From positions 1 through 5,697 of the IMG/VR virus record IMGVR_UViG_3300026224_000013: a stretch of DNA of 5,697 nt. One strand, 5' to 3'. The notes beneath the pieces were generated by a model, which did not search any database, was not told where the DNA came from, and saw only the letters and a list, made by a program, of their open reading frames with translations. The stretch is from a virus (taxonomy: Duplodnaviria > Heunggongvirae > Uroviricota > Caudoviricetes). Numbering within the stretch: the stretch's first letter is position 1; the number at the start of each line of letters is the position of its first letter. Of the stretch, positions 1 through 5,697 are shown in pieces. The position numbers and the translations under genes were made by a program.

Positions 1-171
1 TCTGAGACAACATCTGGCAAGGCTGGGACGGAAGTCACTGTCGTTCTCAAAATCGGTGGAGCTGCATGACAAAGTCATCGGGCATTATCTGAACATAAAA
101 CACTATCAATAAGTTGGAGTCATTACCCTGTTATTGATGATGATATTGACAATAAGATTTATGCCTATGCT

Positions 172-897
172 ATGAATAACGCGATATCGTTTTCAAAAGT
201 TATTAATAACGATATAAAGAATGATAAGCCAGTTGTACTTACCTCTCTTGCTGAGGTTCAGAATGATTTGTGGGCCTATTGTATTAAAGTCCAAAAGGGG
301 GCTGACGTCACTTATTCTTTCCGAAAAATCAGCAGGGGGAAAGTCACAACAAATGAACCACAAAATATGACTCAGCGCGTATTCGCTTTGTTTGATAAAA
401 CAGATAAAGAGTTAAGATCATTTGATGGCAGCGCAGTCAATTTTGATGACAAAATCGATTGTATTTATATAAAAGATCAATTTTATGTATTTCATAAGAA
501 AAGTTTTGAGGCTATTGTAGGCTTGGAGGTTGAGTTTACAGAAGCTGCACAAAAAACATTAAATACAATTAAAGAACTTGATCTTATTGAAGGTTTAGAT
601 GTTATTGAACAAGCTATTCTTCATAAGCCATCACTGAGAAAAATTCTCACTCATATCGCTGAGAAAGGTAACCATACGGCTCTGGAAAAGAATGATGTTC
701 AAGCTATGAATGATGTGTTAAAAATGTTTCAGAACGAAGAGTTTAAGACCAATGAGCATGGTAAATTAGTCATAGAAGATGAGAGGCAAGGAAGAAACTT
801 TCTCAAACTGTTAAATGATTATTATAAACAAGGCATGACTACAAAAAAATACTATGGTACGGATAGCGGAAATGTGATTAACCCTATTAAGGCGTAA
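172..897 (+). CDS. Hypothetical protein, 241 aa, AT-rich orphan ORF (candidate moron/accessory gene; function unknown)
   Basis: Uninterrupted ATG-initiated ORF of 726 nt. Composition is strikingly AT-rich (about 28-30% GC by eye) against roughly 50% GC in the phage genes downstream. Product is Lys/Asn/Asp/Glu-rich with no transmembrane segment and no catalytic motif I can recognise (no Walker A, no HxH/HExxH). No obvious Shine-Dalgarno sequence. Confidence 0.65.
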   Translation: MNNAISFSKVINNDIKNDKPVVLTSLAEVQNDLWAYCIKVQKGADVTYSFRKISRGKVTTNEPQNMTQRVFALFDKTDKELRSFDGSAVNFDDKIDCIYIKDQFYVFHKKSFEAIVGLEVEFTEAAQKTLNTIKELDLIEGLDVIEQAILHKPSLRKILTHIAEKGNHTALEKNDVQAMNDVLKMFQNEEFKTNEHGKLVIEDERQGRNFLKLLNDYYKQGMTTKKYYGTDSGNVINPIKA

Positions 898-1096
898 AGC
901 ATATACTATATCTGGAACTGAAATACCAGCCGCCATCAGAAAGAACTGATGGGGCTTACAAATAGTAAGTAAATATAAAATGTTAAGGTATTTTTCATGC
1001 AAAAATGAAAATCATTGGCACAAATTAGAAACTAAGTAAATTGCTAATACTAATAACTTATTATTCTACTTACTATTTGCATGGAGTTGTTGTGAA

Positions 1097-1130
1097 TTGC
1101 TGGAAAGGTGGGTAATGTTTTTGTAGAATC
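1097..1130 (+). promoter_or_regulatory. Candidate promoter of the hok/mok mRNA
   Basis: TGTAGAAT (TG plus TAGAAT -10 at 1124-1129) with a weak -35 (TGGAAA, 1101-1106). The predicted start region just downstream, GGCGGGTGCTTGAGGCTATCTGCCTC, resembles the 5' leader of plasmid R1 hok mRNA as I recall it. Confidence 0.4.
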
Positions 1131-1182
1131 ACGGCGGGTGCTTGAGGCTATCTGCCTCGGGCACGAACACCAAAGGCAGATA

Positions 1183-1256
1183 GAGAAAAGCCCCAGTTAA
1201 CATTACGCGTCCGGCAAGACGCTTAACATTAATCTGAGGCCAATTTCATGCTTTGC
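1183..1256 (-). ncRNA. sok: Candidate Sok-type antisense RNA (antitoxin of the hok module)
   Basis: Minus-strand promoter-like elements: -35 TTGCCT (complement of 1286-1291), 17-nt spacer, -10 TAACCT (complement of 1263-1268), placed antisense over the mok start and leader as in hok/sok of R1. The minus-strand transcript can form a stem (GGCCUCAG/CUGGGGC with one G-U) ending in a U-rich tract (cttttctct). Exact ends are approximate. Confidence 0.45.
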
Positions 1257-1460
1257 ACATGTAGGTTAGCCTCTTACGTGCCGAAAGGCAAGGAGAAGCA
1301 GGCTATGAAGCAGCAAAAGGCGATGTTAATCGCCCTGATCGTCATCTGTTTAACCGTCATTGTGACGGCACTGGTAACGAGGAAAGACCTCTGCGAGGTA
1401 CGAATCCGAACCGGGCAGACGGAGGTCGCTGTCTTCGTAGACTACGAATCTAGAGAGTAA
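1248..1460 (+). CDS. mok: Mok-like in-frame leader/regulatory ORF overlapping hok (70 aa)
   Basis: ATG at 1248 is in frame with hok and adds 19 N-terminal residues (MLCTCRLASYVPKGKEKQA). This resembles the in-frame MokC extension of chromosomal HokC as I recall it. Translation of this frame is inferred by analogy only. Confidence 0.45.
   Translation: MLCTCRLASYVPKGKEKQAMKQQKAMLIALIVICLTVIVTALVTRKDLCEVRIRTGQTEVAVFVDYESRE
1305..1460 (+). CDS. hok: Hok/Gef-family type I toxin (51 aa small membrane toxin)
   Basis: Translation MKQQKAMLIALIVICLTVIVTALVTRKDLCEVRIRTGQTEVAVFVDYESRE carries the hallmark Hok/Gef/RelF pattern: N-terminal TM helix, TRKxLCE motif, periplasmic tail ending YES. AGGAG-like RBS (aaggagaag) lies 8-16 nt upstream of the ATG. 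Confidence 0.88.
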   Translation: MKQQKAMLIALIVICLTVIVTALVTRKDLCEVRIRTGQTEVAVFVDYESRE

Positions 1461-1469
1461 GAGTGACCA

Positions 1470-1491
1470 GGCGGGAGAGTAATCTCCCGCC
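1470..1491 (+). promoter_or_regulatory. Perfect 9-bp stem-loop in the hok mRNA 3' UTR (candidate fold-back/processing element)
   Basis: GGCGGGAGA-gtaa-TCTCCCGCC is a perfect 9-bp stem with a GNRA-type tetraloop (GUAA), immediately after the hok stop. Hok mRNAs are known to carry 3' structural elements (fbi) that pair with the 5' end. Confidence 0.5.
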
Positions 1492-1530
1492 ACCTCTGAT
1501 GTGTCAGGCATCCTCAATGCACCCACACTT

Positions 1531-1562
1531 AACCCGCTTCGGCGGGTTTTTGTTTTTATTTT
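1531..1562 (+). terminator. Rho-independent terminator of the hok transcript
   Basis: AACCCGC-ttcg-GCGGGTT (7-bp stem, UUCG tetraloop) followed by TTTTGTTTTTATTTT. Confidence 0.75.
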
Positions 1563-1570
1563 CAACGCGT

Positions 1571-1600
1571 TTGAAGTTTTGGATAGTGCCGGAATAGAAT
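1571..1600 (+). promoter_or_regulatory. Candidate sigma70 promoter upstream of the small ORF/DUF1367/YbcO/Q-like gene block
   Basis: -35 TTGAAG (1571-1576), 18-nt spacer, -10 TAGAAT (1595-1600). Sequence-only prediction. Confidence 0.3.
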
Positions 1601-1682
1601 CAAAAATACTTAAGTAGCGCGCAGGGAGAAGAGGGATGGACCCCGAACAGGGGAGTGCTATTTATCTGGAAGGATTCTGAAG

Positions 1683-1856
1683 ATGAAAATCGAAGAATTG
1701 CGTGAAATTTTTAGTGAAGATGGCCTCTATGCTGTGCGCGTTGAGAATGGAGAAGTTATCTACACAACGTTAATTCCTGATGATCATGTGATTTTATCTA
1801 TCGAGGCATTCATTGAATACCTTGAAAGGCTCGGTTTCAAGGTGGTTCGCGAATGA
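1683..1856 (+). CDS. Small hypothetical protein (57 aa), acidic, not in the supplied ORF track
   Basis: ATG at 1683 with GGAAGGA upstream and stop at 1854-1856. Translation is MKIEELREIFSEDGLYAVRVENGEVIYTTLIPDDHVILSIEAFIEYLERLGFKVVRE. GC content and codon use match the downstream phage genes. No family assigned. Confidence 0.45.
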   Translation: MKIEELREIFSEDGLYAVRVENGEVIYTTLIPDDHVILSIEAFIEYLERLGFKVVRE

Positions 1857-1915
1857 GTTATAATTCGTAAGCCAGCCTGAACAACTGGCAACCTACAGCG
1901 CCATTGGAGACAGCA

Positions 1916-2515
1916 ATGGCGCATATACAACTGGTCAAACAAACCTCTTCCGGATTACTTCTCCCGGCGACGCCGGAGAGTTGTGATTTTCTGCATCAAA
2001 TCAAAATAGGCGAGTGGATACACGCTGATTTTAAGCGCGTTCGTAACTACGCATTCCATAAGCGTTTTTTCAAACTTCTGCAACTCGGATTCGATTACTG
2101 GACTCCGGTCGGTGGGGCGATCACACCTCGCGAACGAGAACTGCTGTCTGGTTTCGTGGATTACCTGTGCGAATCAGTTGGTCGGGAACACACACCAGCC
2201 CTGAGTGATGCCGCAGAGCAATATCTAAATACAGTTGCGATACGCAGAACCCGGGATACGGCATTGCTAAAGTCGTTTGAGGCTTTCCGCGAGTGGGTAA
2301 CCATTCAGGCCGGATTTTACACCGAGCATCTTTATCCTGATGGTAGCCGTGGGCGTCGGGCGAAATCTATCGCGTTTGCGAATATGGACGAAACCGTGTT
2401 TCAGCAGGTTTATAAATCTGTACTGAATGTGCTGTGGAACTGGATTCTGTTCCGTAAATTTTCCTCTCCGGAACAAGTCGAAAATGTGGCCGCGCAGCTG
2501 CTGGAGTTTGCGTAA
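1916..2515 (+). CDS. Lambdoid nin-region protein, DUF1367-like (199 aa from ATG 1916; the track ORF begins at TTG 1904)
   Basis: Long ORF with GGAGA RBS 5 nt upstream of ATG 1916. Its stop TAA (2513-2515) overlaps the ATG of the next gene. Family assignment is from memory of prophage genes that precede YbcO-like and Q genes, so it is tentative; the coding call itself is firmer. Confidence 0.7.
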   Translation: MAHIQLVKQTSSGLLLPATPESCDFLHQIKIGEWIHADFKRVRNYAFHKRFFKLLQLGFDYWTPVGGAITPRERELLSGFVDYLCESVGREHTPALSDAAEQYLNTVAIRRTRDTALLKSFEAFREWVTIQAGFYTEHLYPDGSRGRRAKSIAFANMDETVFQQVYKSVLNVLWNWILFRKFSSPEQVENVAAQLLEFA

Positions 2516-2805
2516 TGGTGGACTTACGTAAAGCGACGCGGGGGCAGATGTGCACCGTCAGAATTCCTGGCTACTGCAATCACGATCCGGAAACGTCTGT
2601 GCTGGCGCATTACCGACTGGCGGGAACGTGCGGAACAGCGATAAAGCCACACGATATGCAGGCAGCGATTGCCTGTAGCTCGTGCCACGATTTAATCGAC
2701 GGGCGGGTAAAAACCAGCGATTACACCAAAGAAGAATTACGCCTGATGCATGCAGAAGGTGTTTTTCGCACACAAGAAATCTGGAGAAAGGAGGGATATT
2801 TATGA
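2515..2805 (+). CDS. YbcO-like (DUF1364) Cys-rich putative nuclease of lambdoid prophages (96 aa)
   Basis: Translation MVDLRKATRGQMCTVRIPGYCNHDPETSVLAHYRL...IACSSCHDLIDGR has the size and conserved Cys/His spacing I associate with E. coli DLP12 YbcO. Start overlaps the upstream stop (TAATG) and the stop overlaps the downstream start (ATGA). Confidence 0.75.
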   Translation: MVDLRKATRGQMCTVRIPGYCNHDPETSVLAHYRLAGTCGTAIKPHDMQAAIACSSCHDLIDGRVKTSDYTKEELRLMHAEGVFRTQEIWRKEGYL

Positions 2806-3338
2806 TTTACCCAACGAATACAGGAAAAAGCGGAGAACACCTTCGTCTCACCACGCTGGAAAGTGTCTGGATTCAGGGAAAACTACGTATGTGGGGGCGC
2901 TGGTCGTATATTGGCGGCGGCAGGTCAGGGAATATGTTTAACCAGTTGCTGGCATCCCAAAAAATGACAAAAACAGCCATCAATGAAGCCCTGCGCAGAT
3001 TGAAAAAAGCGGGAATTGATAAACCAGAGTTGGAAGCATTTTTGCGTGAGATGATCGAAGGAAAGCAAAAAAGCTGGTTAACTCACTGCACTGATGCAGA
3101 GGCACTAAAAATTGATAGTGTTATAGGTGAAGTTCTGGCGGATCATCCAGGACTACTAAATGTCCTGAGTCAGCGTTATGTGGGGCGAGGGATGAGTAAG
3201 AGAAGGATGGCAGAGTTATTAAACGAACAGTACCCAGAGTGGGCGTTGATTACATGCCGACGTCGTGTTGAGCAGTGGTTGCGTGTTGCTGAGTTCATTT
3301 TGTATTCACCTATGAGAGAAGCGTTCGATTATGCTTAA
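2802..3338 (+). CDS. Putative late-gene antiterminator, Q-like (178 aa from ATG 2802)
   Basis: ATG 2802 has a strong AGGAGGG RBS and overlaps the YbcO-like stop. The gene is the last before a promoter/terminator pair, the tRNAs and the lysis genes, which is where Q sits in lambdoid phages. Family identity is inferred mainly from position and size, not a recognised motif. The longer track ORF from 2682 is rejected as a 5' extension. Confidence 0.55.
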   Translation: MIYPTNTGKSGEHLRLTTLESVWIQGKLRMWGRWSYIGGGRSGNMFNQLLASQKMTKTAINEALRRLKKAGIDKPELEAFLREMIEGKQKSWLTHCTDAEALKIDSVIGEVLADHPGLLNVLSQRYVGRGMSKRRMAELLNEQYPEWALITCRRRVEQWLRVAEFILYSPMREAFDYA

Positions 3339-3345
3339 AAAATCA

Positions 3346-3374
3346 TTGCAAAATGAGCCACAAACTGCTTCAAT
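3346..3374 (+). promoter_or_regulatory. Candidate late promoter (pR'-like) immediately downstream of the Q-like gene
   Basis: -35 TTGCAA (3346-3351), 17-nt spacer, -10 TTCAAT (3369-3374), about 60 nt upstream of a strong intrinsic terminator. This matches the pR'-to-tR' short-transcript layout of lambdoid phages. Weak consensus match. Confidence 0.25.
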
Positions 3375-3434
3375 TTTGGTACGCTTCGCAAAGCTGTATC
3401 GCGAGGCGAATCAAGCGCAATTGAACTTTAATAG

Positions 3435-3462
3435 AACCCGCCATCGAGCGGGTTTTGTTGTT
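3435..3462 (+). terminator. Rho-independent terminator (candidate tR')
   Basis: AACCCGC-catcga-GCGGGTT (7-bp stem) followed by TTGTTGTTTCTG U-rich tract. Confidence 0.55.
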
Positions 3463-3595
3463 TCTGCGGTGTTATATAAGAAACGACATTTAATAATCTC
3501 CTTCAAAATAAATTTGTTTATATATTGTCATGTATATTTTAAGTGAAAGTGAAATATTCACATAAAATAAAAACATATAAATAAATTTACATAAC

Positions 3596-3624
3596 TTGAC
3601 GCAAAGTGTTGTTGCGATTGGAAT
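3596..3624 (+). promoter_or_regulatory. Candidate promoter with AT-rich UP-like region upstream of the tRNA genes (alternative pR' candidate)
   Basis: -35 TTGACG (3596-3601), 17-nt spacer, -10 TGGAAT (3619-3624), preceded by about 130 bp of extremely AT-rich DNA (3470-3595) and about 75 nt upstream of the first tRNA. Confidence 0.3.
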
Positions 3625-3702
3625 ATTAAATCGTATCATCGAAAACGGTTCTGAGGGGGAACTCTTCTTTGCTCGGTGATATCGCTCCCCTGAAGAACCA
3701 AT

Positions 3703-3778
<76 letters not shown>

Positions 3779-3781
3779 TAT

Positions 3782-3856
<75 letters not shown>

Positions 3857-4156
3857 GAGAAACAAGCCTTATTGTATTGCGGCACTGGCGTATTTTTTAT
3901 TACGTGGGAGCAGGTTGTATTGAAAAAGCATTCTGTTCTCTGGCTATGATTTGAGGCCGGGTGTAGCCTCAGTGCTGATTTTTTACGGCAGCAGAATGGT
4001 GCATTATCGGTGGAGATTTTGTATTTCCTGGCAGGGTCGGTGATGCATCATTCTGGTGTTGTAAAAGCACCACAGAGGCGTTCCTCAGTGCGAGGGTGGT
4101 TTAAAGAGTCGGTTTAGCGGGAAACCACAGTATCCATACAGAACGGAATACTTCGG

Positions 4157-4182
4157 GAGGCACCCGACGCCTCGATTTTATT
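4157..4182 (+). terminator. Terminator-like hairpin with U-tract inside the non-coding block
   Basis: GAGGC-acccgac-GCCTC (5-bp stem) followed by GATTTTATT. Confidence 0.4.
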
Positions 4183-4212
4183 ACAATTAAAAATTCATCC
4201 CTTGCATTGACC

Positions 4213-4241
4213 AACCGCCTCCACCAGGCGGTTTTTTTTAT
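4213..4241 (+). terminator. Strong rho-independent terminator inside the non-coding block
   Basis: AACCGCCT-ccacc-AGGCGGTT (8-bp GC-rich stem) followed by TTTTTTATT. Confidence 0.7.
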
Positions 4242-4421
4242 TCTGAATTCAGTTTCTTCATGGCTCGCTACGGCGGGCCTTTTTCATATCCGCGCCACGC
4301 CCGGCGCACATCAAAAACCACAGAGCCTTTCAGGGGTGAGCTTACGGGATGGTCAGTGTGACTTTCTCTGTGGGCTGGTCACCCCCGGGCGGAGGCTCAC
4401 CCACTAAAAGGAAAAGTCACG

Positions 4422-4847
4422 ATGTTTGGTATTTTCAAAAAGAAAACCCGCAAGGCCATTACCGAAGTGAAGAAGATGGAGAACCGCGACGCAGTGGAGG
4501 CGACCGTCTGGGGTGCGTATTCCATTGCATACGCTGACGGCACCTGCGACGCGAAAGAAATCGCAGTACTGGAGAAAACCATTGCAGCACTTCCTGCCTT
4601 TGCACCGTTCTCCGGCGAGATTGCACAAATGAGTGCAAATATCCGCGCCCGTTATGAAGCGTCGCCGCGCTCTGCTAATGCTGAAGCCCTTCGCCAGCTG
4701 GCTGATGTTGCCGGTACTGATGACGCAGTTAATGTGCTGTGCCTGTGTCTGGATATCGCTGACCAGGATGGCATTGGTCCGGATGAAGAAGCACAGCTCA
4801 AGAAAATTGCTCAGGCGCTTCAGCTACCGCTGGAGCAGTACCTGTGA
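4422..4847 (+). CDS. TerB-like (tellurite-resistance TerB domain-like) protein, 141 aa
   Basis: ATG 4422 with AAAGGAAAAG upstream. Soluble, acidic, mostly helical-looking sequence with paired Asp-rich segments (AYADGTCDAKEIAVLEKTIAA... and ...LCLCLDIADQDGIGPDEEAQLKKIAQAL) as in TerB-fold proteins. The family call is from pattern memory, not a search. Confidence 0.65.
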   Translation: MFGIFKKKTRKAITEVKKMENRDAVEATVWGAYSIAYADGTCDAKEIAVLEKTIAALPAFAPFSGEIAQMSANIRARYEASPRSANAEALRQLADVAGTDDAVNVLCLCLDIADQDGIGPDEEAQLKKIAQALQLPLEQYL

Positions 4848-4996
4848 AAAGTGCGCGTCTTGTACTGGCTGCCATCCTGCTGTTTCTGGTAGTGGCGGTG
4901 GATTTCACCGGACGCCTGATGTCAGTGCTTGCCGATGGCGTGCTGGTGGCGATGGCGCTGGTCGTGCTCCGGCCTTTACTGCGTAAATCTGAATAA
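4844..4996 (+). CDS. Putative small membrane protein (50 aa, GTG start overlapping the upstream stop), not in the ORF track
   Basis: GTG 4844-4846 overlaps the TGA 4845-4847 of the TerB-like gene (GTGA). Translation VKSARLVLAAILLFLVVAVDFTGRLMSVLADGVLVAMALVVLRPLLRKSE has two hydrophobic stretches and a basic C-terminus. An internal ATG (about 4907-4909, same frame) would give only 29 aa. Confidence 0.35.
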   Translation: MKSARLVLAAILLFLVVAVDFTGRLMSVLADGVLVAMALVVLRPLLRKSE

Positions 4997-5043
4997 CACC
5001 ACACAAAAGGCATCTGCGGGTGCCTTTGATGGGGTGTTTTTAT

Positions 5044-5069
5044 GGGCCGTTGGTGGCCCTTTTTTATTT
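5044..5069 (+). terminator. Hairpin with U-tract upstream of the holin gene (terminator-like or regulatory)
   Basis: GGGCC-gttggt-GGCCC followed by TTTTTTTATTT. A weaker hairpin AAAGGCA-tctgcggg-TGCCTTT (5006-5027) lies just before it. Confidence 0.4.
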
Positions 5070-5083
5070 ACAGGAGAAAAAGT

Positions 5084-5449
5084 ATGTCTGAACCCTTATC
5101 CGGTTCCGGCACGGCTGCGGCGCTCGGCGGGGCGACGGTATTCGGGCTGTTTACCGGAACGGATTTCGGGATTGTGTTTGGTGCGTTCGCCGGGGCGTTG
5201 TTTGTGGCAACGATGCCGCAGAAGATTTCAGCCTGGCGTGTGGCGGCACATTTTCTGGTGTCGTTCATTGTTGGTGTACTGGGGGCGCGTGTACTGTCAG
5301 CCTGGATTGCATCAAAAACAGGTTATGACGGTACATCTGCGGAGGCACTGTGTGCGGTGCTGGTGGCGGTGGGGCTTAATCTGCTGTTCTGCGTGCTGGT
5401 GATACGTGCACGCGGGAACGTTTCAAAAATCCTTTCATTCCGGAGGTGA
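5084..5449 (+). CDS. Putative holin (121 aa, multi-TM, Gly/Ala-rich)
   Basis: ATG 5084 with AGGAG RBS (5072-5076). Three to four hydrophobic segments and a charged C-terminus (RARGNVSKILSFRR). Stop TGA 5447-5449 lies 2 nt before the endolysin ATG. The track ORF start at 5042 sits inside the upstream hairpin and is rejected. Confidence 0.6.
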   Translation: MSEPLSGSGTAAALGGATVFGLFTGTDFGIVFGAFAGALFVATMPQKISAWRVAAHFLVSFIVGVLGARVLSAWIASKTGYDGTSAEALCAVLVAVGLNLLFCVLVIRARGNVSKILSFRR

Positions 5450-5451
5450 GC

Positions 5452-5697
5452 ATGTCGGGTAAATTCAGATTCAGTCGTCGCAGTGAAAAAAATCTGGAGG
5501 GCGTCAAACCACAGCTGGTTGCTGTCGTTCGCCGTGCCCTTGAGCTGACGGAGGTTGATTTCGGTATTACGGAAGGGCTGCGCACGAAAGAACGCCAGAA
5601 ACAGCTGGTCGCGGAAGGGAAAAGCCAGACCATGAACAGCCGCCACCTGACCGGTGATGCTGTGGATGTTGTGGCTTATGTTGGCAGCCAGGTGTCA
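5452..5697 (+). CDS. Endolysin, peptidase M15 family (L-alanyl-D-glutamate peptidase / VanY-like), 5' partial (82 codons, runs off the window)
   Basis: Translation MSGKFRFSRRSEKNLEGVKPQLVAVVRRALELTEVDFGITEGLRTKERQKQLVAEGKSQTMNSRHLTGDAVDVVAYV... contains the SxHxxGxAxD zinc-binding signature (SRHLTGDAVD) typical of M15 peptidases. GGAGG RBS upstream. Confidence 0.8.
   Translation, partial: MSGKFRFSRRSEKNLEGVKPQLVAVVRRALELTEVDFGITEGLRTKERQKQLVAEGKSQTMNSRHLTGDAVDVVAYVGSQVS

Follow-up and report, generated by a model that had tools for sequence, protein, structure and literature searches.

The pair of phage genes tciA and tciB is already known: it has been named in phage P1, it is annotated in phage JLK-2012, and it is called routinely by the NCBI Prokaryotic Genome Annotation Pipeline (PGAP). 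Here we analyze one such pair, which lies directly upstream of a holin gene in IMG/VR virus record IMGVR_UViG_3300026224_000013 (Caudoviricetes), positions 1 to 5,697; this whole stretch of 5,697 nucleotides is referred to below as the window. A preliminary description of the same DNA had implied that the pair was new, which it is not.

The best described relatives are tciA-tciB-tciC of P1 and their P7 counterparts (terB, a TciB-like gene and Upf69.6), the information on the P1 tci genes being taken here from GenBank notes. As in the window, the second start overlaps the first stop and tRNA genes lie nearby, and TciB of P1 shares with the window peptide the motif D-F-T / S..L.DG / WP. Function has been assigned to the P1 genes by homology alone. 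CRISPR interference (CRISPRi) has shown that tciA, tciB and tciC of P1 are non-essential for plaque formation (PMC10695390), and the P1vir transcriptome paper merely lists the tci genes as mis-regulated. In phage JLK-2012 (E. coli O55:H7) the two overlapping genes occupy, as they do in the window, a slot downstream of a Q gene and genes for tRNA-Thr/Gly. Orphan phage terB genes have also been noted by others (PMC7371120, PMC8421299), and the authors who described D6-like plasmid prophages refer to the tci genes as morons "in the tRNAs region", for which, according to them, resistance is still to be tested (PMC6799933). Outside this group, TerB domains occur in the membrane-linked defense systems Shango, Bunzi and Dionysus, for which membrane surveillance has been proposed; proteins of the TerB type have been characterized as amphitropic (bioRxiv 10.1101/2025.09.30.679545).

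Our analysis leaves little doubt about the identity of the window pair, its anatomy and its nature as a cassette. Its physiological role, be it guarding of the membrane or exclusion, is proposed here tentatively.

The TerB-family protein and its peptide partner

The larger open reading frame (ORF), tciA, starts with ATG, with a Shine-Dalgarno sequence 9 nt before it, and encodes an acidic protein (isoelectric point, pI, 4.8) without a hydrophobic segment (the best 19-residue Kyte-Doolittle window scores 1.21). Its product and TciA of P1, both 141 aa long, are 86% identical in a gap-free alignment, and it matches phrog_632 ("tellurite resistance") of the PHROGs collection over the full length (E 4e-65). 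At the nucleotide level, megablast against phage records retrieved P1 tciA with 80% identity and, in addition, a 94% identical record in which the consecutive genes are annotated "tellurite resistance protein", "hypothetical protein" and "holin" (PP818812).

The preliminary description had called the 141-aa protein TerB-fold-like, with Asp-rich segments, and had suggested comparing it with TerB models. The match to the Pfam TerB model (PF05099) is confined to residues 11-57 (E 1.2e-7; 32.4 bits, with the cut-off at 24.4), and a single-sequence phmmer search with TciA against PDB sequences gave no match, missing even the TerB structure 2JXU, so that a profile was needed. When 1.84 billion cluster representatives were searched exhaustively with HMMER, 175 relatives were obtained, and the profile built from 94 full-length ones (alignment A1) matched Klebsiella TerB (2JXU) along the full length, with E 1.9e-30 (query positions 6-143, chain positions 12-150). 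All 94 aligned homologs match PF05099. The AlphaFold2 (AF2) model of TciA, with the predicted local distance difference test (pLDDT) of 92.7, consists of six helices and has the all-helical TerB-like three-dimensional fold. Moreover, TciA carries the duplicated acidic motif D-G-x5-E, D39-G40...E46 and D116-G117...E122, each of G40, E46, G117 and E122 being retained by at least 90% of the 94 homologs. Given the profile match to 2JXU, the matches to PF05099, the predicted fold and the retained motifs, TciA is a bona fide TerB-family, TerB-fold protein, and the first assignment is upheld. The only strongly amphipathic basic segment of this protein is its N-terminus (net charge +6 over 18 residues). 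No NCBIfam model matched either TciA or its partner at the threshold E 0.01.

The smaller ORF, tciB, belongs to the Pfam family DUF3927 (E 2.4e-14) and to PHROG 1470, "TciB-like" (E 2.5e-24), and its product is 49% identical to TciB of P1. It is a strongly hydrophobic (grand average of hydropathy 1.4) and basic (pI 10.8) peptide, with basic residues at both ends. The hydrophobic residues form two stretches, approximately 5-19 and 25-43, split by the sequence D20-F-T-G-R24; the D-F-T loop, S27, D31 and P44 show no or almost no variation among the homologs.

Both genes are under purifying selection, the pooled ratio of nonsynonymous to synonymous polymorphism (pN/pS) in tciA-tciB sequences from viral contigs being 0.08 for tciA and 0.38 for tciB. 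Variable sites of tciB are distributed over the three codon positions as 28/17/37, and the other two frames of the same region hold stops in nearly all copies. The small ORF is thus a genuine gene, beyond chance, as follows from the matches to DUF3927 and PHROG 1470, the retained overlap with tciA, the pN/pS value and the closed alternative frames.

The two ORFs overlap in the manner originally reported: both the ORF list and an independent translation place the GTG start of tciB at 4844-4846, across the TGA stop of tciA at 4845-4847 (GTGA), and the sequence GGAG is found at 4832-4835, 8 nt before the GTG. In a survey of viral contigs, which provided 77 distinct DNA sequences of tciA-tciB, the -4 overlap is present in 71, the lengths 141 + 50 aa are found in 62, tciA is truncated in six, and the remaining sequences encode TciB peptides of 42-54 aa. 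Alternative junctions are TGATG (P1), TAATG (locus L174) and the directly adjacent TAA-ATG (FSL SP-076). In one-genome-per-species data the arrangement was observed, in addition to many phages, in 11 species-level loci (a single-protein scan of the species genomes yielded 12 loci in all), spanning Citrobacter, Enterobacter, Erwinia, Scandinavium, Pseudescherichia and others. One TciA among them is only 43% identical to that of the window; still, every full-length locus keeps the TciB peptide, with GTGA, TGATG or TAATG as the junction. Since the overlapping or abutting junction is conserved in several forms, coupled expression of tciA and tciB, also suggested in the preliminary description, can reasonably be inferred from the sequences.

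Two unusual alleles were noted in passing. The assembly-derived protein P0051 (196 aa) is a fusion of TciA and TciB through a frameshift at the junction. In a metagenome contig (L176, positions 1964-2152) the leader and the first 30 nt of tciA are 88.6% identical to window positions 4260-4452, while beyond these 30 nt its TciA is only 43% identical at the protein level, which points to a recombination mosaic within tciA.

A cargo slot and other genomic contexts

Comparison by blastn with the colinear prophage L004 delimits the unit that carries the two genes. Window positions 4223-4312 correspond to positions 3001-3089 of L004, and positions 4993-5372 to 3097-3478, with about 7 bp between the flanks in place of the cassette. 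The cassette is a clean indel of 680 bp, comprised of a 108-nt leader and the two genes and ending at the tciB stop, and its slot lies between the Q/tRNA/terminator region and the holin gene. The insertion directly upstream of the holin, as initially described, is therefore real. The same slot is filled by stx2e in phiP27 and by two genes for hypothetical proteins, also considered cargo, in L004. Downstream of stx2eB, phiP27 retains a frameshifted 3' remnant of tciB (L003, positions 3490-3600; homology starts at window position 4902), and therefore, in an ancestor, the Shiga-toxin cassette took the place of tciA together with the 5' portion of tciB.

Presence or absence at a fixed site between conserved flanks is one of the features by which morons are recognized, and the cassette has it. 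It does not have the classical combination of its own promoter and terminator: the promoter scans, covering sigma-70 consensus sites only, revealed no sigma-70-like promoter in the leader (tool scan) or in positions 4230-4425 (relaxed scan), and the flanking hairpins belong to the backbone, those at 4213-4279 being present in the cassette-free L004 as well. A structured-RNA leader was considered and rejected, as the folding of positions 4300-4430 has a z-score of -1.13 relative to shuffled sequences and no Rfam family matches there. Overall, tciAB is a portable, horizontally mobile, self-contained two-gene cargo cassette. Because no promoter was found in the leader and two terminator-like hairpins are located upstream, the cassette is probably expressed by Q-dependent read-through on the late transcript.

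The order annotated by PGAP as "tellurite resistance TerB family protein", "DUF3927 family protein" and "putative holin" is found in at least 162 of the 5,426 complete E. coli genomes, with the nucleotide identity of 87-96%, one carrier of the arrangement being E. coli A36 (CP028739), and P1-type plasmids contribute a further 171 matching places. The pair in the Q - tciAB - holin context is combined with three Q families and with differing endolysins, and three endolysin types adjoin it. Phage JLK-2012 has the order Q, tRNAs, tciA, tciB, yjhS. In P1 and P7 the pair belongs to the C1-controlled ban operon, behind a C1 operator, and it is also found beside a P1 Dmt-like methyltransferase. In three prophages (L171, L173 and L180) tciAB lies directly downstream of a gene for a cI-like helix-turn-helix (HTH) repressor (+S24), in the same orientation as that gene and divergent with respect to cro/cII-like genes, i.e. 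in the position of lambda rexAB. Finally, the pair is present in the strictly virulent N4-like Salmonella phages FSL SP-076 and SP-058 and in the jumbo Erwinia phage Asesino, and in these N4-like and jumbo phages the copies lie in early regions.

The two proteins differ in their conservation between sister phages. The TerB proteins are only 31% identical between P1 and P7 (L002/L189) and 35% between SP-076 and SP-058 (L186/L191), while the TciB peptides beside them are near-identical within each of the two phage pairs. This implies that the TerB gene alone was replaced, with the breakpoint near the 5' end of tciB. An earlier statement of ours, that TerB homologs with at most 41% identity have no TciB partner, was withdrawn, as it is contradicted by P7, Asesino, FSL SP-058 and JLK-2012; only some distant TerB homologs have no called TciB partner.

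Genes for tRNAs just upstream of TerB-TciB recur in unrelated phages: Thr/Gly in the window, Asn/Thr/Gly in JLK-2012, Asn/Thr, with Ile downstream, in P1/P7, and Trp/Cys in Asesino; D6-like plasmid prophages have been described likewise. Another observation concerns record PP818812.1, named "Actinobacillus phage vB_Apl-pPE4" with A. pleuropneumoniae as the host. It is 89-94% identical to the Escherichia-type prophage region of the window across Q, tciAB and the lysis genes, and its host attribution looks doubtful.

Possible roles of the pair

We propose, with about even confidence, that tciAB is a translationally coupled accessory module of the inner membrane and, more tentatively, that it guards or monitors the membrane during lytic development. 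TciB would be a 50-residue peptide in the inner membrane, with the conserved D-F-T turn and a membrane-embedded Asp. The GTGA overlap would couple translation, so that TciA and TciB are made together, and TciA could bind to the inner membrane, on its cytoplasmic face, via the basic N-terminal helix of TciA and/or via TciB; this recruitment is suggested by the amphitropic nature described for TerB-type proteins. The cassette would most likely be transcribed by the Q-modified RNA polymerase only, immediately before the holin gene. TciAB probably acts during lytic development, because strictly virulent phages also carry the pair; in the window prophage, the apparent transcription of the cassette with the late genes alone points in the same direction. 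There it would guard or monitor the inner membrane of the infected cell. Candidate threats are superinfection by another phage, colicins that form pores, and abortive-infection effectors directed at the membrane; they recall the Phi (phage-inhibition) and PacB (colicin-resistance) phenotypes of the ter locus. The dispensability of the P1 tci genes for plaques (PMC10695390) fits an accessory module.

Several points weigh against this proposal. The two hydrophobic stretches of the 50-aa ORF, mentioned in the preliminary description, are present, but AF2 models TciB as a single continuous helix (residues 2-48, pLDDT 93) and not as a hairpin; the two-helix hairpin would follow from hydropathy, charge distribution and the positive-inside rule. 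The contact between TciA and TciB is a presumed step, and the constancy of TciB beside divergent TerB proteins fits either a conserved generic interface or the absence of a tight complex. Six of the 77 surveyed alleles have a premature tciA stop (46 or 21 codons) with tciB intact. The scope of the promoter scans, limited to sigma-70 consensus sites, also counts here, as does the rexAB-like slot of the three prophages, which suggests expression in the lysogen and hence favors the alternative discussed next. In the searched literature we found no experiment on the function of tciA or tciB.

The strongest rival, which we nevertheless consider unlikely, is defense of the lysogen by abortive infection, with tciAB as a functional analog of lambda RexA/RexB or of DinB/DinC from Dionysus: TciA would sense the membrane or ions, and TciB would be the effector depolarizing the cell upon superinfection. 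Such a role would account for the position of the pair behind a cI-like repressor in three prophages, but no lysogen exists to be protected in the strictly virulent N4-like and jumbo phages that carry the same genes. TerB domains do occur in the validated systems Shango, Bunzi and Dionysus, while no model of PADLOC-DB 2.0, which includes Shango, matches TciA or TciB at E <= 0.1. The deeply divergent TerB alleles beside a TciB that stays constant are reminiscent of a sensor that varies and an effector that does not, and an acidic upstream protein followed by a basic downstream one resembles sensor/effector or antitoxin/toxin pairs; however, alleles with truncated tciA and intact tciB would be unexpected were free TciB toxic. 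In the window, the scans detected no promoter and the cassette follows two terminator-like hairpins, which also counts against this rival. The "accessory defence or superinfection module" of the preliminary description is a live possibility.

A role in the timing of lysis, with TciB (together with TciA) being antiholin-like or modulating the adjacent holin, is markedly less plausible. It agrees with TciB being a small membrane peptide and with the location of the pair directly upstream of the holin, probably on the same late transcript, in the window and in the 162 or more E. coli genomes mentioned above. Yet neither protein matches a holin or antiholin family in Pfam or PHROGs, the cassette is absent from L004, a prophage with the same holin, and its slot is filled there and in phiP27 by unrelated cargo. 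The pair adjoins three different types of endolysins, and in P1/P7, in the prophages with the pair in the rex slot and in the N4-like and jumbo phages it is far from any lysis genes. The specific link to lysis genes and lysis timing suggested in the preliminary description is therefore not supported: tciAB does not belong to the lysis cassette as a dedicated component, and its connection with the holin is positional only.

It is very improbable that the pair is a determinant of tellurite or colicin resistance equivalent to TerB of terZABCDE. The full-length homology to TerB and database names such as "tellurite/colicin resistance protein" speak for it, but these names are homology transfers only, no homologs of terC, terD, terE or terZ occur in the window or beside the copies examined, and in the papers that report phage terB genes the operon is regarded as incomplete and the resistance as untested or unlikely (PMC8421299, PMC6799933). 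Least probable of all is an addiction (toxin-antitoxin-like) pair in which the acidic TciA neutralizes TciB as a small basic membrane toxin, since the resemblance to type II organization (an acidic and then a basic protein, pI 4.8 and 10.8, with a 4-nt overlap) and the presence on P1-type plasmid prophages are outweighed by the persistence of alleles with truncated tciA and intact tciB, by carriers among virulent phages, which have no need for addiction, by the tolerated CRISPRi knock-down of P1 tciA, and by the lack of a match to any toxin-antitoxin family (PADLOC at E 0.1 and NCBIfam at E 0.01 were blank, and Pfam gave only TerB and DUF3927).

Returning to the guarding of the membrane during lytic development, a broader version of it is more speculative. 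TerB and TciB may form one widely shared inner-membrane module of lambdoid, P1/P7/D6-type, N4-like and jumbo phages, that is, a counter-defense or exclusion device protecting the energization of the membrane during infection. The constant tiny peptide would be combined with rapidly swapped TerB "sensor" alleles, as between the sister phages described above, and the logic would be comparable to that of T4 rII against Rex. If true, this would be the first defined phage function for the orphan TerB domain. As a finding, the pair itself has a small weight, as the genes, their overlap and their position are already in public annotation. What retains value is the function of a TerB-fold protein together with a membrane peptide of about 50 residues, present in temperate and virulent phages alike and found at the stx and rex sites, both of them classic places for cargo.

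Backbone of the window and comparison with known systems

The scans for ORFs, Pfam domains, tRNAs, terminators and Rfam families identify the window as the late-regulatory region of a lambdoid prophage (Table 1). The gene order is a KwaB-like ORF, hok/sok, DUF1367, YbcO, a Q-type antiterminator, tRNA-Thr, tRNA-Gly, terminator-like hairpins, tciA, tciB, a holin and an M15 endolysin (from 5452). The whole window is found in no complete E. coli genome, and it is a mosaic.

Table 1. Features of the window, with coordinates, strand and supporting evidence
Feature	Position	Strand	Evidence and remarks
tciA-tciB cargo cassette, leader and two genes, ~680 bp	about 4313-4992	+	blastn against L004
Cassette leader	4313-4421	+	Holds Shine-Dalgarno AAGGA 4408-4412
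tciA homolog; soluble, acidic TerB-fold protein of 141 aa, N-terminal helix basic	4422-4847	+	ORF list, translation
GTGA start/stop overlap, putative translational coupling junction	4844-4847	+	Sequence read directly
tciB homolog, 50-aa hydrophobic membrane peptide (DUF3927)	4844-4996	+	Pfam, PHROGs
KwaB-like ORF (Kiwa defense)	172-897		PADLOC KwaB model, positions 100-338 of 339, E 6e-115
hok/sok-type toxin-antitoxin locus	1136-1460		Rfam sok 1136-1310 (E 5e-26) and Hok-like ORF
Q-type antiterminator gene	2802-3338	+	Pfam DUF1133 (E 1e-101) and Phage_antitermQ
tRNA-Thr(tgt) and tRNA-Gly(tcc)	3703-3856	+	ARAGORN and Rfam
Two terminator-like hairpins with T-runs	4213-4233, 4262-4279	+	Terminator scan; backbone, directly upstream of the cassette
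Terminator-like hairpin with T-run	5044-5059	+	Terminator scan; backbone, between the cassette and the holin start
Holin gene	5084-5449	+	Phage_holin_8, residues 1-98 (E 2.7e-19); Phage_holin_3_7, residues 91-117

The KwaB-like ORF has an in-frame stop at window codon 23, leaving a protein without about 100 N-terminal residues, and no KwaA is visible beside it within the window. The Hok-like ORF (70 aa, 1248-1460) overlaps the Rfam sok match.

The holin gene starts 88 nt after the end of the small ORF, and the hairpin between them is conserved in phiP27, A36 and L004. The gene itself is a chimera in which an in-frame deletion has joined two holin genes, with the junction at about 5372-5376: residues 1 to approximately 101 correspond to the Phage_holin_8 gene found in related prophages, the last 20 residues or so (NLLFCVLVIRARGNVSKILSFRR) correspond to the C-terminal end of the second holin of those prophages, and about 296 bp are absent in comparison with A36, phiP27, pPE4 and L004. 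Given this chimera, the lysis cassette of the window prophage may be defective or altered. Moreover, translation from an in-frame ATG located 14 codons before the holin start (5042-5083) would add MGRWWPFFIYRRKS; the phiP27 holin is annotated from the ATG equivalent to position 5042, and the region of this ATG overlaps the hairpin at 5044-5059. This could be a dual-start holin or a mere mis-annotation.

Among the known systems, the P1 unit differs from that of the window in its junctions, TGATG with an ATG start and a 1-nt overlap against GTG and a 4-nt overlap, and in its location, the ban operon against a site in a phiP27-like lambdoid prophage with Q/tRNAs on one side and the holin on the other. 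Also, tciC is absent from the window, where the sequence from 4993 on is the backbone shared with the cassette-free L004, and therefore tciC is not universal to the module. JLK-2012 differs in having a TciA that is 42% identical to the window protein and in yjhS following the pair instead of a holin. TerB of terZABCDE has in common with TciA the full-length homology, the all-helical fold (2JXU) and the duplicated D-G-x5-E motif, while the partner of the window TerB is a 50-aa DUF3927 peptide unrelated to TerC, and the ORFs and Pfam scan of the window, as well as the annotated neighborhoods of the copies examined, contain no terC, terD, terE or terZ.

Lambda rexA-rexB is comparable by analogy only. 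Both are two-gene phage accessory pairs with a soluble and a membrane component, but the window pair is in the late region, whereas rexAB is in the immunity region; RexB spans the membrane several times and is far larger than TciB. In SngA of Shango, BnzA of Bunzi and DinB of Dionysus, as in TciAB, a TerB-domain protein stands beside membrane or effector components. These defense systems add large components, namely an ATPase/helicase, a MAEBL-transmembrane (MAEBL-TM) protein or a four-transmembrane pore-former (DinC), and the Pfam scan of the window showed no ATPase or helicase partners near tciAB. Unlike these systems as described, TciAB is phage-borne, virulent phages included, and its small and tractable phage versions, those of P1 and of the window prophage, would make a convenient entry point to the TerB domains of the defense systems.

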